From the NCBI GenBank assembly GCA_002371705.1, contig DFGI01000019.1:17181-81180 (forward strand): DNA of 64,000 bases, read 5' to 3'. Source of the DNA: Bacteroidales bacterium UBA3754 (GTDB lineage: Bacteria; Bacteroidota; Bacteroidia; Bacteroidales; UBA1715). Below, piece after piece: positions 14,173 through 26,585 of the stretch (position 1 is the first letter of the stretch; each line of letters starts with the position of its first letter). The notes under the pieces were generated by a model. That model was not told the origin of the DNA and did no database searches. It saw only the letters and a program-made list of their open reading frames with translations. Both the position numbers and the translations under genes were made by a program.

Positions 14173-16785
14173 ATGGAATACAATTTTACCGAAATTGAAC
14201 AGAAATGGCAGGCTTATTGGGAAAAAAATAAGACTTTCAAAACTGTTTTGGACAAGTCAAAACCGAAATTTTATGCGCTCGACATGTTCCCGTATCCGTC
14301 GGGAGCGGGACTGCACGTTGGTCACCCCGAGGGTTACACGGCAACCGATATTGTGAGCCGCTACAAACGTATGAAGGGCTTCAACGTGCTTCATCCTATG
14401 GGCTGGGACGCATTCGGTCTGCCTGCTGAACAATATGCCATTCAAACAGGTACACATCCTGCAATTACAACTAAGAAAAATTGCGACACGTTCCGCCGCC
14501 AAATCAAGTCGCTCGGCTTGAGCTACGACTGGGACCGCGAAATAAATACCACCGACCCGAAATATTACAAATGGACTCAATGGATTTTCATTAAACTTTA
14601 CAATACGTGGTTCGACAAGGAGCAACAAAAAGGTCGCCCAATTTCTGAATTGCCAATTCCTGCCGAGATTGAGGCAAAGGGCAAGGAAGAAGTGCGAAAA
14701 TATATTGATTCCCAACGTCTTGCGTACTACGACAATGCTCAAGTGTGGTGGTGTCCAAACTGTAAGACTGTGTGTGCCAACGAGGAAGTTTTGAACGATG
14801 GCTCACACGAGAAATGTGGTTGTCAGGTCAATCGTAAGAATTTGAAACAATGGATGTTACGTATTCCATTGTATGCTGAACGTTTGTTGCAAGGACTTGA
14901 TGGCTTGGACTGGCCTGCGGGCGTTAAAGATATGCAACGCAACTGGATTGGTCGTTCTACTGGTGCCGAAGTAGATTTTGAAATTGACGGTCTTGATGCA
15001 AAATTGACTGTTTATACAACTCGTTGCGACACGTTGTTTGGTGCAACGTATATGGTTATTTCGCCCGAACATCCTATGATTGAGCAAATTACCACCGCCG
15101 ACCAAAAAGCTGCCGTTGACGAATATCGCAAACAGGCGTCGATGAAATCTGATTTGGACAGAACGGAGTTGGCGAAGGAAAAAACTGGCGTGTTCTCTGG
15201 CCGTTATGCAAAAAATCCTGTAAACGGGACATTGATTCCTATCTGGGTTGCCGACTATGTGCTGATGGGGTACGGAACAGGCGCGATTATGGCTGTGCCT
15301 GCTCACGATACTCGTGACTGGGAGTTCGCAAAGAAATTCAATTTGCCGATAATCGAGGTTTTGAAATCCGAAGTTGATGTACAGCAACAAGCATGGACCG
15401 AAGACGGAATCCACGTAAATTCTGGTTTCCTTGATGGTTTGAACAAGAAAGACGCTATTGAAAAAATGATTGCGTGGCTTGCCGAACGCAAACTTGGCAA
15501 GGCAACGGTGAACTATAAAATCCGTGATTGGTTGTTCAGCCGCCAACGCTATTGGGGCGAGCCGTTCCCTATCATTCACTGGGAAGACGGCGAAGTTACA
15601 ATGGTTGACGAAAAAGACCTTCCTCACAGATTGCCAGAATTGACGAAATACGAACCGAGCGACACGGGTGAATCGCCATTAGCAAATGCCACTGATTGGC
15701 TCAATGTGGTTGATAAAAATGGCCGCAAAGGTCGCTACGAAACCAATACAATGCCGCAGTGGGCTGGATCGTGCTGGTATTACCTTCGTTACACCGACCC
15801 GACAAATGATTCAGCTCCTTTCTCGGTTGAGGCGGAAAATTATTGGATGCCTGTCGATTTGTATGTGGGTGGAGCAGAACATGCAGTGCTGCACTTGCTC
15901 TACAGCCGTTTCTGGCATAAGGTTTTGTTCGATTTGGGCATAGTCCACACCGATGAACCGTATAAAAAATTGTTCAACCAAGGTATGATTTTGGCGTTTG
16001 CCTACGAAACACAGGCAGGAGCGAAAGTCACTTCCGATAAAGTTGAGGAACGCGACGGCAAATTCTTCCATAAGGAAACGGGCGAGGAACTTCGCCAGAT
16101 TGTGGCAAAAATGTCGAAATCGCTGAAAAATGTGGTGAATCCCGACGATGTGATTGCTCACTACGGTGCCGATAGTCTTCGCTTGTACGAAATGTTTATG
16201 GGACCGCTCGATGCCGTTAAGCCGTGGGCGGAAAGCGGCGTGAAGGGCGTGTTCAACTTCCTTGCACGTGTGTTCCGCTTCTTCAGCGAAAAAGAAAACG
16301 TGGTTGCCGATTTGCAGGATGACAACGCAGTTGTGAAGGAACTTCACAAAACAATCAAGAAGGTTGCCGACGATGTTGAAAATCTTCGTTTCAACACAGC
16401 CATTTCACAAATGATGGTGTTCACAAATACGTGTTACAAAGCTGGCAAAGTTTCGGAAGCGACGGCAAAGGATTTTGCCAAGGTGCTTGCCCCGTTCGCT
16501 CCGCATTTGGCAGAAGAATTGTGGAGTATGTACGGTGGAGCAGAATCGCTTGCTTACGAGCCATGGCCTGAATGCGACGAATCGAAGTTGGTTGATGACA
16601 CGGTGATTTATCCTGTTTCATTCAACGGGAAACGCCGTTTCGAGATGGAATTTCCAAAATCGGCAACTCCCGATGAGGTTCAATCTACCGTACTTGCCGA
16701 CGAACGTACAATCAAGTGGCTCGATGGGAAACCAACCAAGAAGGTGATAGTCGTTCCAGGAAAAATTGTAAATATTGTATTGTAA
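14173..16785 (+). CDS. leuS: Leucine--tRNA ligase
   Basis: 870 aa. HIGH-type motif HVGHPEGY, the KMSKS motif, and CP1 editing-domain features. The sequence is collinear with bacterial LeuRS throughout. Confidence 0.97.
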
Positions 16786-16807
16786 CTCAATAGTTTACAA
16801 TAGAATA

Positions 16808-16841
16808 AAAAGGACAAGCCTTGCGGGGTTTGTCCTTTTTT
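16808..16841 (+). terminator. Intrinsic terminator after leuS
   Basis: AGGACAAGCC, loop TTGC, GGGGTTTGTCCT, then TTTTTT. Confidence 0.8.
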
Positions 16842-16922
16842 GTTTGAACGAAAACCTCGATTTGCTTATCCAGTTAAGCAATTTTGCATAAATTTTATTT
16901 AATGGATTATGCAGATTTTTGA

Positions 16923-16930
16923 TATTTTTG
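16923..16930 (+). promoter_or_regulatory. -7 box TATTTTTG for tadA
   Basis: Matches TAnnTTTG and lies 20 nt upstream of the ATG at 16951. This supports the shorter tadA start. Confidence 0.5.
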
Positions 16931-16950
16931 CTTACTGGAGTAAGCAAATT

Positions 16951-17394
16951 ATGGCAGAAAAAAAGACCGACGAATATTATATGGAGCAGGCGCTTGCGCA
17001 GGCGAAAATGGCGTACGAAAAGGACGAAGTACCCATTGGCTGTGTGATTGTGTGCGAGGGGCAAATCATAGCCCGTGCCCATAATCTTTCGGAAACGCTG
17101 AACGACCCAACCGCCCATGCCGAGATGCAGGCATTTACCATAGCCACGGATTTTCTTGGAGGAAAAAGTCTTCAAAAATGTACACTGTATGTGACGGTTG
17201 AGCCGTGCGTAATGTGTTGTGGTGCAGCATATTGGGAGCAATTAGGCAAAATCGTCTATGGCGCGTCCGACGTAAAACGACACGTTTCGGAACTGCACGA
17301 CAAAATCCTTCACCCCAAAACCGAAGTCGTTGGCGGCGTTCTCAAAGAACAATGCGAAGAACTGATGCAGAAGTTTTTTAAGGAAAAGCGGTAG
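16951..17394 (+). CDS. tadA: tRNA adenosine(34) deaminase
   Basis: MAEKKTDEYYMEQALAQAKMAYEKDEVPIGCVIV...; zinc-ligand motifs HAEM and PCVMCCGA. Confidence 0.9.
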   Translation: MAEKKTDEYYMEQALAQAKMAYEKDEVPIGCVIVCEGQIIARAHNLSETLNDPTAHAEMQAFTIATDFLGGKSLQKCTLYVTVEPCVMCCGAAYWEQLGKIVYGASDVKRHVSELHDKILHPKTEVVGGVLKEQCEELMQKFFKEKR

Positions 17395-17413
17395 TTTTAA
17401 AAGAAGAGGAATT

Positions 17414-17451
17414 TTACCTCACCAATTTAGTTAAATTGGAGTTGCCTATGA
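17414..17451. repeat. 38-bp direct repeat, copy 1 (orphan copy of the HTH gene 3' end)
   Basis: ttacctcaccaatttagttaaattggaGttgcctatga matches 18037-18074 at 37 of 38 positions. Read on the minus strand it would encode ...LIGNSNLTKLVR*, but a stop codon lies just upstream, so it is a remnant and not part of a gene. Confidence 0.9.
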
Positions 17452-17464
17452 GGTACTGCAAATA

Positions 17465-17749
17465 CTATGATTTAATTCTTTGAGTAAAGTCAGACCAATC
17501 TTCTACCTTAAATGCACGAATGTCGCGCCCCGATTTCCTAAACCAATCTATTTGTTTTAATGCGGTCATAGCATCGAACACAACGCCTAATCCATCTTCA
17601 TTGGAGTTTGTGAGATATACACTTCCTTGCGTCCAGAAAAACCCATATTTTTTCAAGACCTTTCCAATTTCAAAATAAGCATTATTATATTGTTCATTGA
17701 AGTTTTTCTTCAACTCGGCAATTTCCATATCAAAGGCAATAGCATACAT
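17465..17749 (-). CDS. vapD: VapD-family endoribonuclease (Cas2-like fold)
   Basis: 94 aa. [10 protein letters not shown]...[12 protein letters not shown]...[31 protein letters not shown] closely follows the pattern I recall for Haemophilus/Helicobacter VapD (MYAIAFD...QGS.Y...VRDIRAF....WSDFT). Confidence 0.85.
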
Positions 17750-17751
17750 AG

Positions 17752-17937
17752 TTACGCCAACTTAAAGTATTTCTGTTTGTTGAAATAAACTACTTTGTTC
17801 TCATTTGCTTCTGCATATATTACGATACCATTAAATGGATTGTCTTCAACGGTTTTTACAACACCGTCAATCCATTTGTCCATACCAGTAATGTTTGGTG
17901 AAATTTTTACCCGTGATCCAACTTTCAGTGTATTCAT
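17752..17937 (-). CDS. 61-aa protein of unknown function, upstream partner of vapD (candidate VapX-like antitoxin)
   Basis: Its stop lies 2 nt before the vapD ATG, and it has its own TATATTTG box 17 nt upstream. The sequence looks like a small beta-rich domain ([43 protein letters not shown]...). I recognise no family. Confidence 0.55.
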
Positions 17938-17954
17938 AATCGTTCTGTTTTCTG

Positions 17955-17962
17955 CAAATATA
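17955..17962 (-). promoter_or_regulatory. -7 box TATATTTG for the 61-aa ORF/vapD pair
   Basis: Reverse complement of caaatata, 17 nt upstream of the ATG at 17937. Confidence 0.55.
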
Positions 17963-18036
17963 TGCTAATTATTGAAATAAAAGCAACGGGGAATAGTAGA
18001 TTTCTTGTTTAGAAGTGACAGCGACAGGCGACTTGC

Positions 18037-18074
18037 TTACCTCACCAATTTAGTTAAATTGGAATTGCCTATGA
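18037..18074. repeat. 38-bp direct repeat, copy 2 (functional 3' end of the HTH gene)
   Basis: Matches 17414-17451 at 37 of 38 positions. Here it encodes the last 12 codons and the stop (IIGNSNLTKLVR*). Confidence 0.9.
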
Positions 18075-18357
18075 TGCGGAGAATTTCGGGGATTTTGTTC
18101 TCGTCAACTTCAAGTTGGAGTACAAATTTCTTTGCTTGTGGCTTTTCGTCGGCAGTTACAAACGGCGAGAAAAAGTTGTAATTCAATTCTTGCGAAACCG
18201 CAAATAATTCTTTCACATCCCACGAGTCATTTTTGAGTTTGCTTGTGAGGTTTTGCCTCGACATTCCTAACTTACGTGCCAATTCAGCCACAGTAACATT
18301 TTGTTGCACTGCAACTTTACGAATCCAATCTCCTATATGTAGTTCTTCTATATTCAT
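18037..18357 (-). CDS. Helix-turn-helix DNA-binding protein
   Basis: MNIEELHIGDWIRKVAVQQNVTVAELARKLGMSRQNLTSKLKNDSW...; the HTH core is TVAELARKLGMSRQNLTS. The ATG at 18357 is preferred over the track start. Confidence 0.7.
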   Translation of the reverse strand: MNIEELHIGDWIRKVAVQQNVTVAELARKLGMSRQNLTSKLKNDSWDVKELFAVSQELNYNFFSPFVTADEKPQAKKFVLQLEVDENKIPEILRIIGNSNLTKLVR

Positions 18358-18535
18358 ACCTGCAACTTGCAAAAGTTTTTATTGACAAAAACAAAAATAT
18401 TTTTACAAAAAGTTAAAGAAAATTTGCATCGGTGAAATTTATTTTTACTTTTGTAAAGTTAATTTTTACAAAAGTGCAAGAAAATATTGCACACTAAAAT
18501 TTATTCATTGTGTTTAATTAAAAAATGGAGGTATT

Positions 18536-19285
18536 ATGAAAACAGTTAAAATTCTAACTTTATGTCTTGCAGGTGTGTTTGGATTATATTCCTGCGGAAG
18601 TGACGACAAAGACGAGAAAAAAGAAGAAAAGAATAAGGTGTATTTGGTAAAGAGTCTTACCATCTCAGAAGGTGGTGACCATGATAAATATACTCTCGTT
18701 TATGAAAATGATAGAATCACAAATATCACACTTGTTGATTCTGACGGAGATACATACGCGGAAACGTTTTCATATCCTTCTGCAACATCCATTAATTGCA
18801 AAAGTGTAGACGGAGAAGGTGTAATTACAATGGATGCTACGGGGAACGTCATTTCAAAAGAAGAAGGTACAAATTTCGATGGCGATACGTATAAAGGTGT
18901 ATATTCTTTTATTGACGGGTATTTATCTAAAGAAAGTTGGGGTGAAAATAGTTATGACACTTATACTTGGTTAAATGGAAATCTTACATCTTTGAAAGAC
19001 ACATATGTATTTGAGGATGGAGAAGGCAAAGAAGAACGTGTAACTAAGATAGAATATTCCGATATTGAAAACAACACAAATATAGATTTCTATTTATGGT
19101 TATATAGTGGTGCAAATTATGCATATACTATTCAGTTTATGAAGAATGTTAGTAAAAACATACCAAGTTCAGTGAAATATGAGGAGGGATCACCTGCAAT
19201 CATATCAACCACATTAGATGAAAAAGGTCGTCCTTCAAAAATGATATATGACGGAGATACTTATACCTTTGAATATTACGATTAA
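18536..19285 (+). CDS. Lipoprotein of unknown function
   Basis: Lipobox GLYSC-GSDDKDEKK. The body is beta-rich and Y/D/G-rich, ending ...GRPSKMIYDGDTYTFEYYD. Family assignment is uncertain. Confidence 0.6.
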   Translation: MKTVKILTLCLAGVFGLYSCGSDDKDEKKEEKNKVYLVKSLTISEGGDHDKYTLVYENDRITNITLVDSDGDTYAETFSYPSATSINCKSVDGEGVITMDATGNVISKEEGTNFDGDTYKGVYSFIDGYLSKESWGENSYDTYTWLNGNLTSLKDTYVFEDGEGKEERVTKIEYSDIENNTNIDFYLWLYSGANYAYTIQFMKNVSKNIPSSVKYEEGSPAIISTTLDEKGRPSKMIYDGDTYTFEYYD

Positions 19286-19307
19286 TAATAGAAACTAATT
19301 TAGTTAG

Positions 19308-19347
19308 AAATAGGCAACCAATAAGGTTGCCTATTTTGTTTTTTTAC
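19308..19347 (+). terminator. Intrinsic terminator
   Basis: AAATAGGCAACC, loop AATAA, GGTTGCCTATTT, then TGTTTTTTT. Confidence 0.75.
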
Positions 19348-19385
19348 AGGATTTTTTATGTTTGCTAAAAATTTATAAAAGTATT

Positions 19386-19712
19386 ATGGATTTATTTGAT
19401 GTAAAAAACAAGTTAAGTGATTTGTTTGGAAATAAACAACATAGACTATCAATTGTTTTCAATAACGATGACAGACTCAATGGCCTTCTTTATATGGTCG
19501 TTTTATTTGAAGACGAACTAGTAATTGTGAAAAATAAAGAAGAAAGAGACGAATTAAATGAATCAAGAAAATCGGATGAATCTAATCGTATTCATTTGAG
19601 TGACGTAAAAGAAATATATGAAATAATAGGCACAGGGAAACTTTTAATTTATTCAAGCGAAAAAGATTTTATCATTTCCAAAGCTGAGTATGATAAAAGT
19701 TTTAAGCATTAA
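19386..19712 (+). CDS. Hypothetical protein (108 aa)
   Basis: The ORF is taken from its first ATG (MDLFDVKNKLSD...), because the track start is a TTG. No recognisable motif, so coding status is moderate. Confidence 0.45.
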   Translation: MDLFDVKNKLSDLFGNKQHRLSIVFNNDDRLNGLLYMVVLFEDELVIVKNKEERDELNESRKSDESNRIHLSDVKEIYEIIGTGKLLIYSSEKDFIISKAEYDKSFKH

Positions 19713-19753
19713 AACAGTAAAATAGAAAATAAGTTCAATATCGCCATTTCCCC

Positions 19754-19768
19754 AACGGAGTGGCGATT
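19754..19768. repeat. Cassette-boundary repeat R1, copy a
   Basis: aacggagtggcgatt is identical to 20607-20621. With the following bases the match is 19 of 22. It lies immediately 3' of the PIN gene stop. Confidence 0.7.
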
Positions 19769-19769
19769 G

Positions 19770-20207
19770 TTATTTGTCTTTATTGAGCAACCTTAAAATA
19801 GCAATCATTTCGGCAGGAGAAACCACCTTTGGTGTTTGAGGAAAATGTTTTTTGTTGCCAGTAATTAAAAAAGAATCTTCCACCGACAAAGTCACTTCGT
19901 AAAAAACAATGTCTTTCTCGTCAATAAAATTTTCAGACGATGTTGTTCGTTCCGTCGAAAGGCCATACGTTTCAAAGAAATGCAACCACTCCATCACCAT
20001 TTCCGGTGAGAAGTTGAATTTCTTTCGAAATAACACCTCTTTGTATTCGGCGAGAATCTCTTTGTTTACTAATGGTTGTAAAATACCTTTTGTTAGGTAA
20101 TCCAAAACCAGAATTGTTGCGGCATCGGTTTTGTGGGAATATAGTGCAGACACGATTACATTTGTGTCTATCACTGCATATATTTTGTCATTTGTCTTCT
20201 CTTGCAA
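19770..20207 (-). CDS. PIN-domain toxin (VapC-like)
   Basis: IYAVIDTNVIVSAL... near the N-terminus carries the PIN acidic residue. About 145 aa. It overlaps the upstream DinJ-family antitoxin gene by 20 nt. The start is a TTG, so the exact start is uncertain. Confidence 0.8.
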   Translation of the reverse strand: MQEKTNDKIYAVIDTNVIVSALYSHKTDAATILVLDYLTKGILQPLVNKEILAEYKEVLFRKKFNFSPEMVMEWLHFFETYGLSTERTTSSENFIDEKDIVFYEVTLSVEDSFLITGNKKHFPQTPKVVSPAEMIAILRLLNKDK

Positions 20208-20478
20208 GTTTGATTTCGTTATTTATATCGTCCAACGTCATGTGTAATCCACTTTTTTGTGCTTCCTCACGAAGTGCTAAAAATGCCTTACGCCCTTGTC
20301 GCAAGACGTCTTGTTCGTTGTCTAATTCAATTTCAAATGGTATTTTTCGTTTCCGAATCACCATTTTTGCGAAAATGTTAATGGCTGTGGTGGTTGACAT
20401 TCCAAATTCAGAACAGAGATAGTCAAAGTTTTTCTTCACCTCGCTATCCATTCTTACCGTAAAAGCTGTTTGTGCCAT
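20188..20478 (-). CDS. RelB/DinJ-family antitoxin
   Basis: MAQTAFTVRMDSEVKKNFDYLCSEFGMSTTTAINIFAKMVIRKRKIPFEI is the ribbon-helix-helix DinJ pattern. Confidence 0.85.
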   Translation of the reverse strand: MAQTAFTVRMDSEVKKNFDYLCSEFGMSTTTAINIFAKMVIRKRKIPFEIELDNEQDVLRQGRKAFLALREEAQKSGLHMTLDDINNEIKLAREDK

Positions 20479-20497
20479 AATTCAATCATTTTGGTTG

Positions 20498-20505
20498 CAA
20501 ATATA
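20498..20505 (-). promoter_or_regulatory. -7 box TATATTTG for the DinJ/PIN operon
   Basis: Reverse complement of caaatata, 19 nt upstream of the ATG at 20478. Confidence 0.55.
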
Positions 20506-20577
20506 CATTAAATAGAACCTAAATGCAATCTTTTAGACAAAAGTATTCACAGCAAGAACTTGATTACTTTTCTTTCT

Positions 20578-20597
20578 ATGTAAACTTTTTAATGAGG
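20578..20597. repeat. Cassette-boundary repeat R2, copy a
   Basis: atgtaaactttttaatgagg matches 21346-21365 at 20 of 20 positions. Confidence 0.9.
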
Positions 20598-20606
20598 TTT
20601 TTTCAA

Positions 20607-20621
20607 AACGGAGTGGCGATT
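20607..20621. repeat. Cassette-boundary repeat R1, copy b
   Basis: aacggagtggcgatt is identical to 19754-19768. It lies immediately 3' of the HigA-like gene stop and 9 bp after R2 copy a. Confidence 0.7.
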
Positions 20622-20625
20622 TTTA

Positions 20626-20955
20626 TTACCAGAGTGCTATTTTGCCAAATTTTCCAAAGTCAATGGTGGCGGTTTTGGCTCCAAGTGCCTTAAAAGCTTT
20701 TTCAATAGTGGCAAACGTCATATTTTTCCCATTTTCAATTCTCGACACTTGAGATTTTCGTATTCCCATACGTTCGCCAAGTTCTTCTTGCGTTAGATTC
20801 TCGCGTTTCCGCGCTGCTTTAATTGCCTCTCCAATGCGATATGCGTGCAGTGCATCCTCTACGTTTTTCTCTAATTCGTCACGTCGTGGCGAACCTGCTT
20901 TGCCGTAAAATTCATCAAGTAAATCTTCAAACGGTGTCAAATTCATCTGTGCCAT
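20626..20955 (-). CDS. XRE-family HTH antitoxin (HigA-like)
   Basis: ...RENLTQEELGERMGIRKSQVSRIENGKNMTFATIEKAFKALG is a classic Cro/C1 HTH. It sits downstream of a RelE/HigB-type toxin gene. Confidence 0.85.
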   Translation of the reverse strand: MAQMNLTPFEDLLDEFYGKAGSPRRDELEKNVEDALHAYRIGEAIKAARKRENLTQEELGERMGIRKSQVSRIENGKNMTFATIEKAFKALGAKTATIDFGKFGKIALW

Positions 20956-20966
20956 ATCGTCAAGTT

Positions 20967-21305
20967 TTATTTATTGTTGAAATATTCGTTTCTAATACTT
21001 TCCGCCTTTCTTATTTCTTTATTCGGCGTTTTTTGCGTTTTTTTTATTATTCCATGCGTTGCGACAATCAGAGATTCTGATTCTGTATCCCAAAATGCAA
21101 ACAAACGGTACGCTATTTTATTATACAATGTGCGAAACTCCCATATTTCAGTGTTTTCAAGTTTTTTAAATATTTCGTTATTCCTTTCACCGCCTTTTAT
21201 TCTACCAATGTTGTATGTAAATTTGTCCCTTGCCTGTTGGGGAATTGTGCGGAGAAATTCTGCCGCTTCATCAGTGAATAAAATGCTAATATTTCCGTTA
21301 ACCAT
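20967..21305 (-). CDS. RelE/ParE-superfamily toxin (HigB / phage Gp49-like)
   Basis: 112 aa. ...IWEFRTLYNKIAYRLFAFWD...LIVATHGIIKKTQKTP is the Gp49/HigB pattern. The toxin-first gene order is typical of higBA. Confidence 0.85.
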   Translation of the reverse strand: MVNGNISILFTDEAAEFLRTIPQQARDKFTYNIGRIKGGERNNEIFKKLENTEIWEFRTLYNKIAYRLFAFWDTESESLIVATHGIIKKTQKTPNKEIRKAESIRNEYFNNK

Positions 21306-21322
21306 ATTTTTATTTTGTAGTA

Positions 21323-21330
21323 CAAAGATA
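21323..21330 (-). promoter_or_regulatory. -7 box TATCTTTG for the HigB/HigA operon
   Basis: Reverse complement of caaagata, 17 nt upstream of the ATG at 21305. Confidence 0.55.
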
Positions 21331-21345
21331 CAAAAGTTTCCAAAA

Positions 21346-21365
21346 ATGTAAACTTTTTAATGAGG
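21346..21365. repeat. Cassette-boundary repeat R2, copy b
   Basis: atgtaaactttttaatgagg matches 20578-20597 at 20 of 20 positions. Confidence 0.9.
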
Positions 21366-21380
21366 ATTTGATGAATGATG

Positions 21381-21655
21381 AAATATGTCTGAGCCTTTCA
21401 GGCTCATTATAATGGAGGCGCAGGAGCCTATTCTACGGCTATGCCGCAGGGAATTTCTGTCCGAGCCATTCGGGCTCTTTCCTCCATCGAATGCTTCTCC
21501 GATTAATAATTTCATGAACAGCCTGAAAGGCTGCGACAAATATACCCCAATGGCATCGCCTTGGGCGCCCCAGGGCAATTCAATAGCAGAATTATGCTCA
21601 TTGCTCCAATTATCTTCCGAGAGAATATGCAGCCAGAATGGCTGCGACAGATATA
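21381..21655. repeat. Cluster of four REP/BIME-like hairpin units (two per orientation) plus a GC palindrome
   Basis: Unit consensus is AGCCnGAAnGGCTnnGACAnAnAT. U1 at 21381-21404 (minus strand): agcctgaaaggctcagacatattt. U2 at 21452-21476 (minus strand): agcccgaatggctcggacagaaatt. U3 at 21520-21544 (plus strand): agcctgaaaggctgcgacaaatata. U4 at 21631-21655 (plus strand): agccagaatggctgcgacagatata. There is also a 10-bp palindrome tgggcgccca at 21563-21572. The only ORFs here are two mutually antisense ones. Confidence 0.75.
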
Positions 21656-21774
21656 GCTTGAATATTGCGACCATCATAGTATGCGATTCTTTGCGACAAA
21701 ATTACAGATTTCTTACGGAAAAGCGGTAGCCATTAAAAATAAATCTGTATTTTCGTGAACAAAATTTTAAGGAT

Positions 21775-22422
21775 ATGAAAAACGGTAATCTAATCGTAAA
21801 CATTATTTTCGGAGCGGCAATTGTTTTGCTGTTCGTGCTGTATGCAAAAAAACCTTCTGCCGAGGCAGTAAAAGAACCTGTTACAACCGAAGTCGATACT
21901 TCGCTCGATGCTCTATTCGCCGACGAAGAAATGGTTGAGGCAAATTTCCCAATTGCATACGTAATTGTTGATTCGGTAATGCATAACTATTTGTATTATC
22001 AGAAGTTAGAGAAACAATACCAAAATTTGGTTTCTTCGGAAGAAGCAAAATTGCAGAAGAAAGCGGAACAATTCCAAAAAGATGTTGAGGATTTTCAATA
22101 TCAAATTGAGAAACGAATCATTACGTCTGCCGACGCTCAGGCAAAAGAGGCGGAACTGGGGCAACGTCAGCAGAATTTGTACGCCGAACAACAGAAAAAA
22201 CAACAGGAATTGGCTGTGAAAGAGCAAAAACTTCTTGACCAGCTGATTGACAGCGTTCACGCCTGCATTAAGTTCTACAATGCCGACGGCAAATACAAAA
22301 TTATTCTGAACAATGCGTACCAAAGCAGTGTGTTGTATGCCGAAGAGCAGTTGAACATCACCAACGACATTCTCAAGGTGATGAATGCACGATACAATGC
22401 GGCAATTCAAAAGAAAAAATAA
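21775..22422 (+). CDS. OmpH/Skp-family periplasmic chaperone
   Basis: An N-terminal hydrophobic anchor/signal followed by a long lysine- and glutamine-rich helical region. The length and composition are typical of Bacteroidota OmpH-family proteins. Confidence 0.7.
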   Translation: MKNGNLIVNIIFGAAIVLLFVLYAKKPSAEAVKEPVTTEVDTSLDALFADEEMVEANFPIAYVIVDSVMHNYLYYQKLEKQYQNLVSSEEAKLQKKAEQFQKDVEDFQYQIEKRIITSADAQAKEAELGQRQQNLYAEQQKKQQELAVKEQKLLDQLIDSVHACIKFYNADGKYKIILNNAYQSSVLYAEEQLNITNDILKVMNARYNAAIQKKK

Positions 22423-22429
22423 TATTCTA

Positions 22430-22457
22430 GTAGAGACGATGTGCACATCGTCTCTAC
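22430..22457. terminator. Perfect 28-bp palindrome / strong hairpin between skp and ubiX
   Basis: gtagagacgatgtg|cacatcgtctctac forms perfect 14+14 arms. It starts 8 nt after the skp stop and ends 9 nt before the ubiX ATG. No U-tract follows, so terminator function is uncertain. Confidence 0.45.
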
Positions 22458-22466
22458 ATTGAAAAA

Positions 22467-23018
22467 ATGAAAATCATCGTCGCTGTCACCGGTGCATCGG
22501 GCTCGTTGTACGCCCAATGTCTGTTCGACAAACTGAATGCCTTGCGTAGTCAGATTGATGAGGTGTGCGTGGTGTTTTCCAAAACGGCAAAAGATGTGTG
22601 GAAACACGAAATGCCTTCTGCTCCAAATATTTACGATTTTACAGAATATGCCGACGCGGATTTCTTTTCGCCGATAGCGTCGGGTTCGGCAAAATACGAC
22701 GCAATGATTGTCTGTCCGTGCAGCGTTGGCACAATGGGACGGATAGCTCACGGAACTGCCGACACGCTCATCACCCGTTCCGCCGACGTTATGCTCAAAG
22801 AGCGACGAAAACTAATTCTCGCCGTCCGCGAAACGCCCTTCAGTTTGATTCATATTAAAAATATGGAGTTGGTTACTCTTGCTGGCGGAATAATTTGCCC
22901 GGCAAATCCGTCGTTTTATTCAAACCCGCAAACCATTCAAGACGTGTGCAATACGGTGATAGACCGCATTATAGATTTGGTTGGTATTGAACATAATGGT
23001 TTTCGTTGGGGAAAATAA
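22467..23018 (+). CDS. ubiX: UbiX-family flavin prenyltransferase
   Basis: MKIIVAVTGASGSLYA... is a flavoprotein fold. The 183-aa length and ...PCSVGTMGRIAHG... are typical of UbiX/Pad1. Confidence 0.9.
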   Translation: MKIIVAVTGASGSLYAQCLFDKLNALRSQIDEVCVVFSKTAKDVWKHEMPSAPNIYDFTEYADADFFSPIASGSAKYDAMIVCPCSVGTMGRIAHGTADTLITRSADVMLKERRKLILAVRETPFSLIHIKNMELVTLAGGIICPANPSFYSNPQTIQDVCNTVIDRIIDLVGIEHNGFRWGK

Positions 23019-23052
23019 ACGACTTTTAATGGTTGCATTCTTTTCTTTTTTC

Positions 23053-23060
23053 TATATTTG
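23053..23060 (+). promoter_or_regulatory. -7 box TATATTTG
   Basis: Lies 23 nt upstream of the ATG at 23084. The track start at 23075 is a TTG inside the leader. Confidence 0.5.
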
Positions 23061-23083
23061 TGTAATTTGAAAATTTGCATCTT

Positions 23084-24799
23084 ATGAGAAAGATTTTATT
23101 ATTTGTCAGTTCCGTTTTGATTAGTTTTGGACTAAATGCGCAAGAAAGTCTAAAATTCAGCGAACTTGCTATACAACTGTCAGTTTCGGATTTTGTGCTG
23201 AAAAACACTGAGACGGGAACTGAAGAAGGTCAATTTTCTGAGGATTTATATACTCAACTGTCGGAAGTAAACATTGCCGCGATTGCTATGCAACAGAATG
23301 CGGAAACTCAGTCCGACATTGATGACATGGTGGGCATTTTAGATAATGCAATCCGTGAATATGCCGCATCAATTGTGTCATCAACCACAAGTGAGTTCGA
23401 TATTGACGCGCTTTCGGATGAAGTGACGGTTGCTACGTGGCTTTTGAGCGCATCGAAAGCGGGAACAAAGCAAGGACAATTTCCGCAGGAGCAATACAAT
23501 GAATTGTATAATATAAAACAGGATGCAAAATCCGCATTGAAATATGCTGAAAGCCAGAGCGAAATAGACGAAAACTACCAAACGCTTGTGGCAGCTGAGG
23601 AATCGTTTAAGGCTTCGGTTTATGAGGAAGATGTGGTGATAGCGCCAACCTACGACAATTCGTTGCTCAGCCAGGCAATCGACAAAGCCACGTTGTTGTT
23701 GGAAAGCACGACCTACGGCACTGAAATCGGTCAGTATTCCGTAACCGAATATATGAATCTCTCGAAAGCGACGGAATCGGCAAAAACGATTCTCGCAAAG
23801 TCAAACAAGCAATCGGAAATCGACAAGGAAGAAGCCGCTCTTACAAAGGCAATCCAAACGTACACCGACACAAAGGTTACGGAAGAAACGTATGTGAAGC
23901 CAGATTCTCCGTACAATGTTGGACAATTGTCGTCGAAAATTGAAACTGCCAATTATTATTTGGACAACACGACATACGGCACAAATGTGGGACAATATCC
24001 TATCGCGCAGTACAAAAACTTGCTTGCCGAAACAGAAAAAGCAAGGGATTTGTTGACTTCGGCACAAAATCAGTCGGAAATTGATGCGCAAACAAGCGCG
24101 CTTGCTCAAGCAATTGACGAATACGTTGAATCGAAGCTAACAGAGTCATTACCACCACAATACGACGAAACATTCGACATCAATGTGATGGTGAACAACG
24201 AAAATTATGGAAAAACATACGGCAGCGGTTCATATTCAAAACGGAATGTCCGTATAATTGCCTCTCCTGCAAGCGGTTATCACTTTGTGAAATGGGAAGA
24301 CGGCAACGAGGATAATCCAAGGGACATTACGGTGACAAAAGACGAAGTGTATATGGCTGTTTTTGAAAAAATCACAGAACCAGTCACTGATTCAACACTT
24401 TACACTATAAATGCGGTGTCTATAGACGACCAGTTGGGACTTGTTCTCGGAAGTTCTAAAAATATTGCCTACGGTACAAAGATTACATTGATAGCGCAGG
24501 TGTCGTTCGATGGTTACCATTTCGCTGGTTGGAGCGATGGAAATACCGAGAATCCACGTCAATTAACCGTTACGGAGGATAAAGTGATTGTGGCTCTGTT
24601 TGAAAATGGTTCTACGGCAATAGAAGATCCTATCGTTGAAAACGACATTCAAATTATTCAGCGACAAATAGTTATGAATGGAGAGGCTCCTGTATACGTA
24701 TATGACATTCTCGGTCGGAAAATTGCAAATAAGAATCTTTCGCAGGGTGTCTATTTGGTGTCGATGAATGGTAAAACCGCACGGGTATTTATTCAATAG
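23084..24799 (+). CDS. T9SS-secreted repeat protein (4 FIVAR-like helical repeats, 2 Listeria-Bacteroides-type repeats, C-terminal sorting domain)
   Basis: Signal peptide MRKILLFVSSVLISFGLNAQ. Four units of about 75 aa each contain GT..GQ(F/Y)....Y..L....(A/K).......QS(E/D)ID....L..AI..Y. Two GYHF(V/A).W.DGN..NPR..TVT.D....A.FE units follow. The C-terminal GVYLVSMNGKTARVFIQ looks like a T9SS type-A tail. Confidence 0.75.
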   Translation: MRKILLFVSSVLISFGLNAQESLKFSELAIQLSVSDFVLKNTETGTEEGQFSEDLYTQLSEVNIAAIAMQQNAETQSDIDDMVGILDNAIREYAASIVSSTTSEFDIDALSDEVTVATWLLSASKAGTKQGQFPQEQYNELYNIKQDAKSALKYAESQSEIDENYQTLVAAEESFKASVYEEDVVIAPTYDNSLLSQAIDKATLLLESTTYGTEIGQYSVTEYMNLSKATESAKTILAKSNKQSEIDKEEAALTKAIQTYTDTKVTEETYVKPDSPYNVGQLSSKIETANYYLDNTTYGTNVGQYPIAQYKNLLAETEKARDLLTSAQNQSEIDAQTSALAQAIDEYVESKLTESLPPQYDETFDINVMVNNENYGKTYGSGSYSKRNVRIIASPASGYHFVKWEDGNEDNPRDITVTKDEVYMAVFEKITEPVTDSTLYTINAVSIDDQLGLVLGSSKNIAYGTKITLIAQVSFDGYHFAGWSDGNTENPRQLTVTEDKVIVALFENGSTAIEDPIVENDIQIIQRQIVMNGEAPVYVYDILGRKIANKNLSQGVYLVSMNGKTARVFIQ

Positions 24800-26585
24800 C
24801 GAAAATATTCATCTCGCATTTGTCGCAGTTGAATTCCACACGGAATCTGTGCGATTTGTCGGATAGTTCCAATGGTTCGGCGTGTCCTTTCCTGCAAGCT
24901 CCCAGTTGGTAACGGATGCAGTATTTTGTGGTCATTAACGGCACATTTTTCCGATGTTCGCATTCAAATGCACGTTGCGTAATCTCCACTCCGTGACGAC
25001 GGAAAAACTCCACAGCTTTCTGGTTTGCCACATTCAGGCGGAAATCCGTTGGCTCCGAGAGCGGAAATTGAACGTTGTTTTTAGACAATGATGTAATGTG
25101 TTGTGACTCAGCATCTACAATGATTTTTGCCCGTAGCTTTTCACACGCATCCCGACGCAAAGAATTTATCTCGGAAATGGGAACGAAAGGTATTGCTTCG
25201 CCTTGACAATCAATTGACTCCAAGTAAAAAATGCTGTCGCCCATTTTCGAAATCTGCGAAAGAAACGTTTCTTTTTGGCGTTGTGGATTTTTCGCACGTT
25301 CCGTAATACCGCGTTCCACTGTTACAGAATGTCCGTTCGAATCGGACAATGTGAGCGAATATGTTTTCTCTAAGAACTTGCACGCCGCTTTGATGGGCAA
25401 TTTCCGAGGATGGTCGCTTTGGCTCAATTTTTTCTGAAATTCTATGTCGAAATTGCGCCAAATCTCCGTTCCTACAGGAATTTGTGCTTGCTTATTTAAA
25501 GTGATGCTTTCCCCGTTTACTGCATTGACTTGAATACCAGAAAGTTCGTTATTTTTATCATAATAACAAAGTCCATCGCCATTGTGCAGAGGAATGGTTG
25601 TGAGGATTTGTAAGCCATTTTTCCCTTGCGATTCTACTTTCCCGATGTATTCTCCCTGTGATTTTGGAGAACGAATATTTGCAATTTTATTTTGTTGGGA
25701 ATCAATGTAATATTCTGTGTAACCTCGAGTAAAGGTTTTATGTATGTCGGGAGTGAAAGTAGGGCTACAAATGCCCGTTGAACTTCGTTGGAAATCAGGA
25801 TGTTTTGTAATAAAATTATCTAATTTTGCACGAAAATACGCCGTCACATTTTCTACATAGTCTTCATCTTTCAACCGACCTTCAATTTTAAAACTTGTGA
25901 TTCCAGCTAAAATCAACTCTTCCAGTTTGTTACCGAGGCTTAAATCCTTTGTGGAAAGAAAATACCCTTCACGAGGTTCACCTAACCCTTGCAATGTGTA
26001 TTTGTGGCGGCACATCTGTGCACATTCGCCACGGTTTCCGCTCCGTCCAATGGCATATTCGCTCATATAGCATTGTCCGCTGTAGCAGACGCATAGTGCG
26101 CCGTGTATGAAAAATTCAAGAGGAACTGTTGTTTGCTGGGCTATTTCGGCTATTTGTTTCAGATTCAATTCCCGTGCGAGAACCACTTGCGAAAAGCCAA
26201 CATGTTCAAGAAAAGCAACCTTCTCGGGCGTGCGGTTGTTGAGCTGCGTGCTTGCATGGATGGGAATAGGAGGCAAGTTGCATTCCAACAAACCCAAATC
26301 TTGAATTATCAGAGCGTCGGTGTGGATGTCATATAATTTATGGGCAAGCTCAACTGCGTTGTCTATCTCGTTGTCGTACAATATGGTATTTAGCGCCACG
26401 TAAACCTTTACATTAAACTGGTGCGCATATTGAATCAATGCCGCAATGTCTTCAAGAGAATTTGCCGCAGCCGCCCGCGCCCCAAAGGCCGGAGCACCGA
26501 TGTACACCGCATCGGCACCGTGGTTTATTGCCGCTATGCCGACTTGCAGATTTTTCGCAGGAGACAGTAATTCAAGATTTCGCAT
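24789..26585 (-). CDS. Peptidase U32-family protein
   Basis: MRNLELLSPAKNLQVGIAAINHGADAVYIGAPAFGARAAA...; the E.F.HGALC..YSG.C motif (EFFIHGALCVCYSGQCYMS) is characteristic of the U32 family. ATG at 26585; the track start is a TTG. Confidence 0.85.
   Translation of the reverse strand: MRNLELLSPAKNLQVGIAAINHGADAVYIGAPAFGARAAAANSLEDIAALIQYAHQFNVKVYVALNTILYDNEIDNAVELAHKLYDIHTDALIIQDLGLLECNLPPIPIHASTQLNNRTPEKVAFLEHVGFSQVVLARELNLKQIAEIAQQTTVPLEFFIHGALCVCYSGQCYMSEYAIGRSGNRGECAQMCRHKYTLQGLGEPREGYFLSTKDLSLGNKLEELILAGITSFKIEGRLKDEDYVENVTAYFRAKLDNFITKHPDFQRSSTGICSPTFTPDIHKTFTRGYTEYYIDSQQNKIANIRSPKSQGEYIGKVESQGKNGLQILTTIPLHNGDGLCYYDKNNELSGIQVNAVNGESITLNKQAQIPVGTEIWRNFDIEFQKKLSQSDHPRKLPIKAACKFLEKTYSLTLSDSNGHSVTVERGITERAKNPQRQKETFLSQISKMGDSIFYLESIDCQGEAIPFVPISEINSLRRDACEKLRAKIIVDAESQHITSLSKNNVQFPLSEPTDFRLNVANQKAVEFFRRHGVEITQRAFECEHRKNVPLMTTKYCIRYQLGACRKGHAEPLELSDKSHRFRVEFNCDKCEMNIFAIE

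Follow-up and report, generated by a model that had tools for sequence, protein, structure and literature searches.

Integron cassette arrays lie beside the gene of the tyrosine recombinase IntI and its attI site, while the arrays termed CALINs lack the integrase. Their attC sites are imperfect palindromes of 55-140 bp which fold as single strands and carry R''/L''/L'/R' boxes (RYYYAAC ... GTTRRRY). The pdif (Xer) modules of Acinetobacter plasmids are discrete units, often toxin-antitoxin (TA) pairs, which are set apart by short conserved sites and reshuffled in varying combinations with no recombinase gene adjoining; the 28-bp sites consist of inverted 11-bp arms around a 6-bp spacer and alternate in orientation. 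In IS200/IS605 elements or PATEs, subterminal hairpins at both ends are recognised by TnpA, the Y1 transposase being encoded in cis or in trans. More generally, palindromes can stimulate illegitimate recombination, and the joints of tandem duplications leave direct repeats between which deletions later occur.

Where sedentary chromosomal integrons hold TA cassettes, each of these brings its own promoter (PMC8618304). Integrons are also on record in Bacteroidota (PMC8618304), whereas the first-pass annotation had remarked that it was not aware of such arrays being established there. In Photorhabdus laumondii a 24-bp res-I-like palindrome occurs on both sides of a chromosomal ParE/RelE operon and in a single copy at the empty site of a close relative (PMC13617665). 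HUH enzymes are known to act on single-stranded hairpins (PMC6006769).

The window, i.e. the whole 64-kb stretch of Bacteroidales DNA analysed here, contains two neighbouring TA pairs, RelB-PIN (unit A) and HigBA (unit B), whose edges share the short sequences R1 and R2. The first-pass annotation had compared this layout to a cassette array. According to our analysis the shared edges are copies of one linker of ~50 bp and not an integron-like attachment site. They lie in a small islet of addiction/defence modules which differs between strains and occupies a fixed chromosomal position.

The two toxin-antitoxin pairs

The Pfam results (PIN_3, RelB, HTH_3 and Gp49; Table 1) agree with the earlier gene calls of PIN and DinJ, HigA and HigB. 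RelB-PIN has the type II organisation of an antitoxin gene followed by a PIN-domain toxin gene, and its -7 box (TATATTTG) is located at 20498-20505. In related alleles the antitoxin and toxin genes overlap by ATGA. L013 and L111 carry a PIN allele of 140 aa, and relative to it the allele of the window has lost one A from the A-run after the canonical ATG (~20184-20187), which leaves this ATG out of frame, and the toxin may thus be impaired.

HigBA likewise appears as a type II system with the toxin gene first, an 11-bp gap between the genes and a predicted palindromic operator beside the -7 box. Its HigB homologues are labelled RelE/ParE family toxin in their source records. A blastn comparison of the two-unit region with plasmids and phages gave matches of ~70% in the HigB coding region only and no similarity in the flanks.

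Table 1. Positions of the features of the TA islet within the window.
Feature	Position	Strand	Evidence or composition
vapD cassette	17414..18074	-	61-aa gene and Cas2-like VapD gene, 38-nt direct repeats
Terminal array hairpin	19740..19768	-	In gene orientation AATCGCCACTCC-GTTGG-GGAAATGGCGAT
PIN-domain toxin gene (VapC-like), 145-aa ORF	19770..20207	-	Pfam PIN_3, E = 1.4e-15
RelB/DinJ-family antitoxin gene	20188..20478	-	Pfam RelB, E = 2.5e-09; NCBIfam RelB_DinJ, E = 2.9e-15
RelB-PIN upstream region	20479..20577	-	RelB upstream alignment, seven haplotypes; distal 49 bp (20529-20577) unique to the window
Linker S2	20578..20625	-	R1b and A-rich lead 20607-20625, spacer of 9 bp 20598-20606, R2a 20578-20597
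HigA-type HTH antitoxin gene	20626..20955	-	Pfam HTH_3, E = 5.4e-13
HigB-type toxin gene (Gp49/RelE superfamily)	20967..21305	-	Pfam Gp49, E = 3.9e-16
HigBA promoter	21323..21357	-	-7 box and inverted repeat; repeat and position kept in L113 and L116
R2b and AAAT, S1 remnant	21346..21369	-	L001/L002 compared with L003/L004/L019
G+C-rich hairpin cluster, REP-like	21370..21700		e.g. CAGCCTTTCAGGCTG and GAGCCTGAAAGGCTC, both orientations

R1 and R2 as parts of one linker

The identities previously claimed for R2 (20 of 20) and R1 (15 of 15) hold and are non-random. R2 (plus strand ATGTAAACTTTTTAATGAGG) occurs in exact copies at 20578-20597 (R2a) and 21346-21365 (R2b), with no third copy within the 64-kb window even when up to three mismatches are allowed (chance expectation 0.01). 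R1 (plus strand AACGGAGTGGCGATT) is found in exact copies at 19754-19768 (R1a) and 20607-20621 (R1b), its chance expectation at up to two mismatches being 0.17. When flanking bases are included, the repeats lengthen to 24 nt at 96% identity and to 28 nt at 86% identity. In a local alignment of unit A with unit B these were the only two blocks (scores 43 and 37, best of 200 shuffles 36), which indicates that the remainder of the two units is unrelated. As had also been noted, R1 abuts the stop codons, beginning 1-5 nt past the stop in both units, and R2a and R1b are 9 bp apart.

R1, the spacer and R2 constitute a single repeat of ~50 bp, here termed S; when copy S2 is aligned with copy S1 of Y1-bearing haplotypes, 42 of the 51-52 columns agree. 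R1 and R2 had been taken for cassette ends; they proved to be fragments of this larger common repeat, an outcome the first-pass annotation had itself named beforehand as speaking against its reading. In gene orientation S consists, from 5' to 3', of a stop-proximal A-tract, R1 (the 5' arm and loop of a terminator hairpin), GGGGAAAT, CCTCATT and R2. S1 is the native copy 5' of HigBA and S2 the second copy 3' of HigA. The S1 spacer in other haplotypes is GGGGAAAT, a direct continuation of the hairpin; in the window this part of S has decayed to TTGAAAAAA.

R1a stands as an exact repeat but not as a free-standing boundary, since it forms the 5' arm and loop of the terminal hairpin of the array, the 3' side of which is 19740-19753 (GGGGAAATGGCGAT). 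This hairpin is terminator-like and reads as a hairpin on either strand (DNA fold z = -3.3; terminator scan match at 19740-19767). Compensatory changes were observed at three of its base pairs, and a T-tract follows 3' in most haplotypes. By its G+C-rich stem-loop, T-tract and conserved structure it is a predicted intrinsic terminator. In all haplotypes seen it is complete at the array end only, irrespective of the downstream gene, and the internal junctions of the array carry its 5' half only. S2 is such a half terminator without the 3' arm, joined to the truncated start of the HigBA promoter. With its terminator lost, the HigBA transcript probably reads through into RelB-PIN.

The R2 portion of S corresponds to the initial 13 bp of the promoter of HigBA, which form the left arm of an operator-like inverted repeat. 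Upstream of HigBA, the -7 box (TATCTTTG) is located at 21323-21330 and the inverted repeat (AAAAGTTTACA / TGGAAACTTTT) at 21347-21357 and 21332-21342; the latter is probably the HigA operator. The 3' part of R2b is the left arm of this repeat (AAAAGTTT-N8-10-AAACTTTT), and the repeat lies directly 5' of the -7 box. In other genomes, orthologues of HigBA (HigB 82% and 79% identical) are found between rpiB and the gene of a LUD-domain protein; they have the same repeat at the same position, and R1 and CCTCATT are absent at these loci of the other species. This arrangement shows R2b to be native to the HigBA promoter. R2a, which stops exactly at the palindrome centre and lacks the right arm, is a truncated, displaced copy of the promoter element. 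The different distances to the two -7 boxes (72 versus 15 bp) had been taken as an argument against R2 being a promoter element, which is wrong for R2b given the conserved inverted repeat. In other settings (L111, L110, L012, L015 and L017) RelB-PIN occurs without R2, which rules out R2 as an operator common to both modules.

The upstream S copy of the window is reduced to AAAT and R2, while the R1 part and the preceding Y1 gene of other strains are missing; from the haplotype comparison this shortening is attributable to the disappearance of Y1. Where Y1 is missing, the left end has the sequence CATC-AAAT-CCTCATT, which places the S joint on a 4-bp microhomology. The two R2 repeats are spaced 768 bp apart, i.e. 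by one unit length. A search for the origin of the 49 bp that separate R2a from the RelB promoter yielded no second copy. The bases following R2a (AGAAAGAAA) resemble the promoter spacer of L113 (ATAAAGAAA), a similarity set aside as of too low complexity.

Search for recombination sites and recombinases

The interpretation of R1 and R2 as attC-like recombination sites is contradicted by the missing fold, the lack of a recombinase in the window, the restriction to one locus and the fixed module order. The junction (20560-20640) folded no better than shuffled sequences on either strand (z = +0.65 and +0.86), and direct reading revealed no pair of attC boxes (RYYYAAC/GTTRRRY) at this position. 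An Rfam search of 15000-25000 at E <= 1 returned nothing in the junction, the terminal hairpin or the REP-like cluster. In line with the earlier statement that no integrase is nearby, Pfam detected no recombinase domain, and hence no IntI, among the 30 ORFs scanned in the 64-kb window, which included all non-nested ORFs of 220-460 aa.

The genome, metagenome and viral scans placed the R1-spacer-R2 junction at this single locus, as far as exact-pattern scans reach, which diverged S-like linkers would escape; the source genome itself was covered over the 64 kb of the window. Among 185,579 species genomes an exact scan for R2 (CCWCATTAAAAAGTTTACAT) gave two matches, neither of which was taken as real: the match in L010 lies inside a TPR-protein ORF and is due to chance, as is presumably the one in L009, a Lachnospiraceae MAG. 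The metagenome scan for R1 followed by R2 retrieved two contigs only, both of this locus. The 17-mer core of R2 had 60 single matches in the viral scan; most of them were viewed with their upstream context, none of these has a convincing R1 adjoining, and the matches look like chance.

Variation of the locus between strains

In metagenome contigs of related uncultured Bacteroidales the locus keeps its place, with an OmpH-UbiX block on one side and an HTH gene on the other. This one site offers a natural series of six or more haplotype classes with joints resolved to the base, which bears out the proposed modular nature of the locus as a strain-variable array. The module order is constant in all haplotypes seen: the Y1 transposase-like gene, then HigBA or DUF3791-DUF3990, then RelB-PIN. 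Different modules do adjoin copies of the junction, as the first reading had led one to look for: R1-spacer-R2 also follows two further unrelated modules, namely the Y1 transposase-like gene in L003, L004, L019 and L082 and the DUF3791-DUF3990-67aa module in L018.

The presence or absence of RelB-PIN falls exactly at R1 (L003, L006 and L002 versus L001 and L013), and the downstream flanks with a 108-aa gene and with a 263-aa gene each occur with and without RelB-PIN. In L082 the joint lies in the R1 loop (after CCGTTGG, at the palindrome centre); next comes a second HigBA in inverted orientation, then a remnant of the 3' part of PIN and finally the full hairpin. Given this remnant, one or more of the haplotypes without RelB-PIN must have lost it. 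The modules are far more conserved than the flanking core genes, RelB being 99.7% identical where UbiX is 82% identical, which indicates module exchange between lineages.

The fullest arrays are headed by the gene of a 151-aa Y1_Tnp protein (PF01797, E = 8.6e-21), which is followed by S. The protein scored 50.6 bits with the NCBIfam IS200 model, below the cut-off of 55, and 19.3 bits with the RAYT model. The gene is absent from the window, and the hairpin cluster accompanying it in other strains and species is present; the ORFs called across this cluster are probably spurious. Other Bacteroidales have Y1 homologues of 67-71% identity, and these too are flanked by hairpins of the same types. 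In RAYT/REP (REPIN) systems a Y1 gene in single copy stands among clustered short G+C-rich palindromes that belong to one family and are usually scattered through the genome as well. As a single-copy, IS200-like gene beside G+C-rich palindrome clusters in both orientations the Y1 gene resembles these systems. Unlike them, the window holds the cluster alone, with no REP-like hairpins dispersed over its other 60 kb, and the hairpins are unrelated to R1 and R2. Elsewhere, Y1 homologues belong to type I restriction-modification operons or to islands of other kinds and have neither R1/R2 nor TA arrays beside them, which rules out that the Y1 gene is an IS200 carrying the modules.

The direct repeats previously reported around vapD were recovered at 17414-17451 and 18037-18074 (38 nt, 97% identical). 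Their sequence is that of the final 38 nt of the HTH gene, and each holds the full palindrome CCAATTTAACTAAATTGG. The cassette is inserted at the palindrome centre, between GAGGTAA and TTACCTC, and an empty site with one repeat copy exists in L017. Further joints at palindrome centres follow CAGCCATTCT of a REP hairpin in L012 and lie between TTCGC and GAA within Y1 in L017. In L018 the joint follows CCTTTGTGGGAT of a related hairpin, 5' of the DUF3791 module, and in L111 an upstream-arm repeat, 15-17 bp of AAAAAACGGCAAACC, lies behind RelB-PIN. The vapD cassette (38 bp), RelB-PIN in L111 and the R1 family share a common anatomy, in which a palindrome is interrupted after its 5' arm or its loop by the insert and the upstream arm is repeated behind the latter. 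The recurrence of the pattern within one islet of 4 kb is unusually high.

Possible origin of the linker

We consider it somewhat better than an even chance (probability of about 0.55) that S is a duplication joint which arose by palindrome-centred illegitimate recombination and that the repeats later drove deletion and exchange. The hairpin (...GGGG-AAAT-GGCGAT) would have been joined to the HigBA upstream region (...CATC-AAAT-CCTCATT...) by illegitimate joining at the level of microhomology, most simply when the 768-bp HigBA unit was duplicated in tandem. The second HigBA copy would then have been replaced by RelB-PIN from the operator centre onwards, and breaks within the islet would have recurred at palindrome centres. 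The direct repeats (three R1, two R2/S) would have provided substrates for ordinary homologous recombination, and the resulting deletion and module exchange between lineages may have led to the present pattern of presence and absence. We infer the order of these events and the mechanism of breakage, and presume that no dedicated enzyme was involved.

Duplication joints are resembled in the 4-bp microhomology, the spacing of one unit and the breaks at hairpin or palindrome centres. Unlike in a simple duplication joint, the second copy holds an unrelated module, so that a further replacement must be assumed. Against a duplication joint speaks furthermore that the HigA, PIN, Y1 and 67-aa genes all end in the same hairpin half at their stop codons, which it leaves unexplained; at least one earlier duplicative event must therefore be assumed. 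The gene of a Y1 (HUH) nuclease at the head of the fullest arrays counts against accidental joints.

Alternatively, the modules may be excised as circles and re-inserted by host homologous recombination across the short direct repeats (R1 with 15-23 bp, S with ~50 bp, the vapD repeat with 38 bp), spreading between strains by transfer and subsequent Campbell-type integration at a single-copy site. With regard to present-day dynamics this overlaps with the duplication joint; it differs in that insertion, and not deletion alone, is counted as frequent. The presence or absence of RelB-PIN and vapD exactly at repeats, the empty sites with one copy, the occurrence of both downstream flank types with and without RelB-PIN and the high conservation of the modules across lineages are consistent with it. 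However, repeats of 15-23 bp do not exceed the length below which RecA recombination usually becomes inefficient, neither a permuted order nor a second locus with the same bounded unit was seen, and one module-less haplotype (L082) is demonstrably a product of deletion or replacement. The first origin of the repeats is also left unexplained, and a passive movement of this kind appears unlikely.

The several independent modules with the same palindrome-insert anatomy hint at a directed process rather than accidents. Such an undescribed process, which we regard as rather improbable, would insert modules at the loop or 3' side of terminator-type palindromes, copying the upstream arm behind the insert. 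The terminator would thereby be regenerated, the next module could land, and head-to-tail arrays would grow without an integron integrase. Replication might switch templates at the hairpins, or the modules might be inserted in trans by an HUH (Y1/RAYT-like) nuclease. The process would have acted four times independently, giving rise to the R1 family, to the H2-type hairpin around RelB-PIN in L111, to the DUF3791 module in L018 and to the vapD cassette.

That S is the attachment site of a recombinase encoded elsewhere in the genome, comparable to attC, pdif or res-flanked operons, is suggested by the same junction 3' of three unrelated modules and by a shared sequence that starts at the stop codon and ends sharply. 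As in integron arrays, small self-contained modules, among them TA modules with their own promoters, stand head to tail in one orientation, with a conserved element at or beside each stop codon and a content that varies between strains. Unlike integrons, this array has neither IntI (in the window) nor attI, and its element of only ~50 bp has no fold and no R''/L''/L'/R' boxes. Where integron cassettes each bring their own complete site in shuffled order, the hairpin is broken at the internal junctions here, in contrast to attC, dif or res arrays, and the order is constant at one locus in one lineage. Moreover, half of S is the native promoter/operator element of one module, HigBA, which is free of R1 in other species, and RelB-PIN elsewhere lacks R2. 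The locus also differs from pdif modules in its chromosomal position and in R1 and R2 being direct repeats without an inverted-arm core. The Photorhabdus ParE/RelE operon offers a published parallel as a chromosomal type II TA system with a short two-copy boundary sequence and no adjacent mobility gene (PMC13617665). Its closest match here is the vapD cassette, whose repeats contain a full palindrome, whereas the repeat of HigBA and RelB-PIN is half a palindrome with a promoter fragment. Taking all this into account, a site-specific recombinase acting on S seems quite improbable.

The proposal that a Y1 (HUH, RAYT-like) nuclease nicks single-stranded hairpins 3' of the loop (after GGGGAAAT) and joins single-stranded modules, the array growing at its terminal hairpin, would fit the Y1_Tnp gene, itself followed by S, at the head of the fullest arrays and break points whose position is the same with respect to each of two related hairpins, but the gene is missing from the window and from many array-bearing haplotypes, its homologues elsewhere are without such arrays, its companion hairpins are unrelated in sequence to R1, and the R2 end and internal junctions have no hairpin such as IS200/IS605-type elements need at both ends. 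Even with the known action of HUH enzymes on single-stranded hairpins (PMC6006769), it is very improbable.

Implications

How chromosomal TA modules arrive, stack and erode without visible mobility genes is poorly understood, and a 2026 study on Photorhabdus poses the same question (PMC13617665). As the present locus shows, apparent cassette ends can be one duplicated piece made up of terminator and promoter sequence, which calls for caution in repeat-based cassette calling. The islet breaks and rejoins at palindromes, i.e. at a terminator, an operator and REP-like hairpins, and provides a concrete substrate for asking whether hairpin-centred insertion is accidental or driven by an enzyme. If accidental, it would represent ordinary genome plasticity in a toxin-antitoxin hotspot.

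Repeats and genes of the two toxin-antitoxin units

The minus strand carries all four genes of the two units, predicted to encode PIN_3 and RelB proteins in the one and an HTH_3 antitoxin (HigA) and a Gp49/HigB-type toxin in the other. This agrees with the first-pass annotation, which had also placed identical repeats, R1 and R2, at the edges of both units; these were recovered without a mismatch (table below; suffix a, RelB-PIN unit; suffix b, HigBA unit). With their flanks the repeats measure 24 nt and 28 nt, and local alignment of the two units returned only these two blocks, the remainder being at shuffle level. No third copy of R2 was detected in the window even at three mismatches (chance expectation 0.01 matches; 0.17 for R1). 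An R1 look-alike in a coding region, kept in all related contigs, was judged a chance resemblance.

The canonical ATG of the PIN gene overlaps the RelB stop codon, and one A is missing from the A-run directly behind it (ATGACAAAAATATATG in other strains versus ATGACAAAATATATG in the window). Since translation in frame could now begin only at a TTG within relB, the PIN toxin of this strain may be poorly translated or inactive. Taken together with the truncated HigB of haplotypes L016, L020, L104 and L106, toxin decay seems to be common at the locus.

Coordinates of repeats, hairpins and genes in the window and on related contigs (L numbers)
Feature	Location	Details
R1	window 19754-19768 and 20607-20621	15/15 identical; gene orientation (minus strand) AATCGCCACTCCGTT
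R2	window 20578-20597 and 21346-21365 (R2b)	20/20 identical; gene orientation (minus strand) CCTCATTAAAAAGTTTACAT
Hairpin after PIN stop codon	window 19740-19768	AATCGCCACTCC-GTTGG-GGAAATGGCGAT
R1 look-alike	window 24981-24995, minus strand	13/15 match, CACGGAGTGGAGATT
PIN start deletion	window about 20184-20191	one A missing
vapD cassette	window 17414-18074	61-aa gene and Cas2-like VapD gene
38-nt direct repeats of vapD cassette	window 17414-17451 and 18037-18074	each with complete palindrome CCAATTTAACTAAATTGG
HTH gene	window 18037-18372	last 38 nt identical to the vapD repeats
G+C-rich hairpin cluster (REP)	window 21370-21700; L003:760-1090; L090:5460-5760; L095:4740-4920	both orientations
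Y1 homologue	L084-L089, L095: 5001-5456; L096:1721-2176; L097:100-555; L098:1564-2019; L099:916-1371	
Terminators of shared design	L016:5659-5700; L019:6600-6640; L112:1069-1110; L111:6709-6745; L113:2630-2665; L115:880-915; L116:2895-2925	

R1 and R2 as parts of a probable terminator and of a promoter

The hairpin behind the PIN stop codon (fold z = -3.3) matched in a terminator scan, and behind HigA only the 5' arm and the loop of this R1 hairpin are present. The HigA/RelB-PIN junction, proposed earlier as a recombination site between cassettes, gave no fold, with z = +0.65 and +0.86 for the two strands. In every related haplotype a complete hairpin, mostly with a T-tract, stands behind the last module of the array, irrespective of the gene beyond it, which codes for a protein of 108, 183 or 263 aa or for an M4 peptidase. 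Between variants, paired substitutions preserve three base pairs of the stem (UA/AU, CG/GC and CG/UA); the hairpin is therefore conserved as a structure and, in the simplest reading, is an intrinsic terminator.

A common design (A-tract, (A/T)CG(G/C)CA..CC, loop, GG..TG(C/G)CG(T/A), T-tract) recurs in many terminators of these genomes, the R1 hairpin being a variant of it. Terminators so alike could provide short portable homology between unrelated modules.

In other genomes HigB homologues (82% and 79% identical) and their HigA partners have rpiB on one side and a LUD-domain gene on the other. The single upstream block common to these loci and the window (...AAAAGTTTACAT-N-GAAACTTTT-N-TAnnTTTG...) contains an inverted repeat of 8-11 bp (AAAAGTTT/AAACTTTT) directly before a Bacteroidetes-type -7 box; neither R1 nor CCTCATT is present there. 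Because the 3' 13 bases of R2 constitute the left arm of this conserved repeat, R2b belongs natively to the HigBA promoter and is probably half of the HigA operator. R2a, in front of RelB-PIN, ends exactly at the palindrome centre and lacks the right arm. The earlier argument that R2 is no promoter element, based on its distances of 72 versus 15 bp from the -7 boxes, thus holds for the displaced copy R2a but not for R2b. R2 was also rejected as a general cassette end, since RelB-PIN occurs without it in other settings (L110, L111, L012, L015 and L017), including L111, where RelB is 96% identical and lies between a GT25 gene and DUF1294/Dus, and L110 (79% identical).

Haplotypes of the locus and the linker S

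Identity look-ups with HigB, RelB, PIN and OmpH retrieved many metagenome and MAG contigs, whose proteins are labelled Bacteroidales by NCBI. On every contig that reaches the flanking core genes the array adjoins the same OmpH-UbiX block, the exceptions being the more distant L111 and L112. The window type, a REP-like hairpin cluster followed by HigBA and RelB-PIN, was found in L001, L013 and L021. In L019 and L004, and in decayed form in L016, L020 and L104, the transposase-like gene Y1 lies between REP and HigBA. RelB-PIN is absent from L003 and L006 (REP-Y1-HigBA-hairpin) and from L002 and L005 (REP-HigBA-hairpin); in L003, L006 and L002 the gap falls exactly between the two R1 copies, so that HigA is followed by an intact hairpin. 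L018 carries a DUF3791-DUF3990-67aa module between REP and RelB-PIN, and in other contigs RelB-PIN has an imprecise junction with a shortened REP hairpin (L012, L015) or with a Y1 gene cut back to its first ~95 nt (L017).

The same R1-spacer-R2 junction occurs behind the Y1 gene (AATCGCCACTCAGTC GGGGAAAT CCACATTAAAAAGTTTACAT) and behind the 67-aa gene of L018 (AATCGCAACTCCGTT TTTGGGAAAA ACTCATTAAAAAGTTTACAT). This, together with the precise absence of RelB-PIN, supports the proposed cassette-like architecture in so far as it is modular and polymorphic, but the order of the modules is constant in all haplotypes.

In the haplotypes that keep Y1, the linker in front of HigBA (S1) consists of R1 + GGGGAAAT + CCACATT + AAAAAGTTTACAT and aligns with the linker behind HigA (S2) as a single unit (42/51-52 columns identical). 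R1 and R2 are therefore pieces of one repeat, S, rather than the separate cassette ends that had been suggested. They were taken for separate elements because Y1 and the R1 portion of S1 are missing from the window, which retains CATC-AAAT-CCTCATT... The spacer of S1 continues the hairpin (...GTTGGGG AAAT GGCGAT), and that of S2 has drifted (TTTGGGAAAA in L018, TTGGAAAAA in L004 and TTGAAAAAA in the window). S is joined on the four bases AAAT, which are common to the hairpin and the HigBA upstream sequence, and the two R2 copies are spaced 768 bp apart, corresponding to one HigBA unit. By this microhomology and spacing S looks like a tandem-duplication joint.

Search for a dedicated recombination system

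No recombinase domain was detected in 30 ORFs of the window, which otherwise codes for housekeeping functions. Among 185,579 species-representative genomes R2 had only two matches, one of them read as a chance match in a coding region; the junction pattern was found in the metagenome collection at this locus only, and viral, plasmid and phage collections contained nothing relevant. The integron-like interpretation of the first-pass annotation is left unsupported by fold, recombinase or distribution.

The Y1 product belongs to a 151-aa PF01797 family conserved across Bacteroidales. Elsewhere its homologues are found in variable regions, among them type I restriction-modification operons, and R1 and R2 are missing there; those listed in the table are located between hsdS and hsdR, beside inserted Fic, DUF1016/YhcG and SLFN/AlbA_2 genes, which suggests that variable defence regions of Bacteroidales repeatedly carry this family as cargo or are marked by it.

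The hairpins of the REP cluster (CAGCCTTTCAGGCTG, GAGCCCGAATGGCTC, GAGCCTGAAAGGCTC, CCCAAGGCGATGCCATTGGGG), some units of which start with promoter-like TAnnTTTG boxes (TATATTTGTCGCAGCC), are located directly 5' of the Y1_Tnp gene in other strains, and the same types accompany Y1 homologues (67-71% identity) in other Bacteroidales. The Y1 genes are therefore regarded as RAYT-like genes with REP-like partners and were rejected as cassette integrases. In the window the cluster looks like a RAYT/REP-type association that has lost its gene, and the predicted ORFs of 106 and 114 aa that span it are probably not real genes.

Break points at palindrome centres

Besides S, several joints lie at or close to the centre of a palindrome. 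R2a, for one, stops on its right at the centre of the operator repeat. Furthermore, a REP-like hairpin is broken after its loop in L012 and L015 (CAGCCATTCT|), the Y1 gene of L017 at TTCGC|GAA, and R1 of L082 in its loop (CCGTTGG|). Behind this break L082 carries a second HigBA pair in inverted orientation, then the 3'-terminal 12 nt of PIN and a full hairpin; RelB-PIN was thus present formerly and later replaced. The DUF3791 module of L018 is preceded by remains of the PIN 3' end and by one half, the 5' one, of a related hairpin (AACGGCAAACCTTTGTGGGAT|), and RelB-PIN of L111 is flanked by AAAAAACGGCAAACC, present as a bare half upstream and as a copy completed to a hairpin downstream.

The vapD cassette interrupts a second palindrome, GAGGTAA|TTACCTC (as in L013), at its centre; this palindrome overlaps the stop codon of the HTH gene, and the 38 nt preceding the cassette are repeated behind it. 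L017 represents the empty site with a single repeat copy. The cassette resembles the ParE/RelE operon of Photorhabdus, which has a res-I-like palindrome on either side where the empty site has just one (PMC13617665) and provides a published parallel for the repeat-bounded modules of the islet.

Exchange between lineages and origin of the shared boundaries

Across haplotypes the nucleotide identity of UbiX falls to 82%, while on the same contigs RelB reaches 99.7%, HigB 98% and the 108-aa gene 98.5%. In L017, L018 and L082 the toxin-antitoxin genes are 98-99.7% identical to those of the window at the nucleotide level, versus 82-83% for the neighbouring UbiX, and within one module RelB is 99.7% but PIN only 92.5% identical. 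Lineages thus seem to have exchanged sequence recently, some of the break points falling inside modules. The islet is a mosaic traded among diverged lineages, presumably through homologous recombination within the modules and near them.

We favour, with a probability of roughly 0.55, the explanation that a single joint, S, made by illegitimate palindrome-centred recombination, is repeated at the shared boundaries, and that the direct repeats so formed now mediate module loss and exchange. Most simply, the HigBA unit would have been duplicated in tandem and RelB-PIN would then have replaced the second copy. This model does not account for the same hairpin half ending four unrelated modules, nor for the recurrence, with three different palindromes in 4 kb, of an insert that follows the 5' arm and has a copy of the upstream arm behind it.

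The latter recurrence keeps three alternatives alive. Passive circular cassettes moved by general recombination could produce it, a doubtful possibility next to a module order that never varies. A site-specific recombinase not yet described would fit the pattern as well and seems unlikely, the junction being confined to one locus. A hairpin-targeted process driven by HUH/Y1, also compatible with the repeated arms, appears quite improbable, the Y1 homologues elsewhere lacking R1 and R2.

The locus represents a chromosomal toxin-antitoxin hotspot with repeat-bounded modules, the main value of which lies in its base-level record of palindrome-centred rearrangements.
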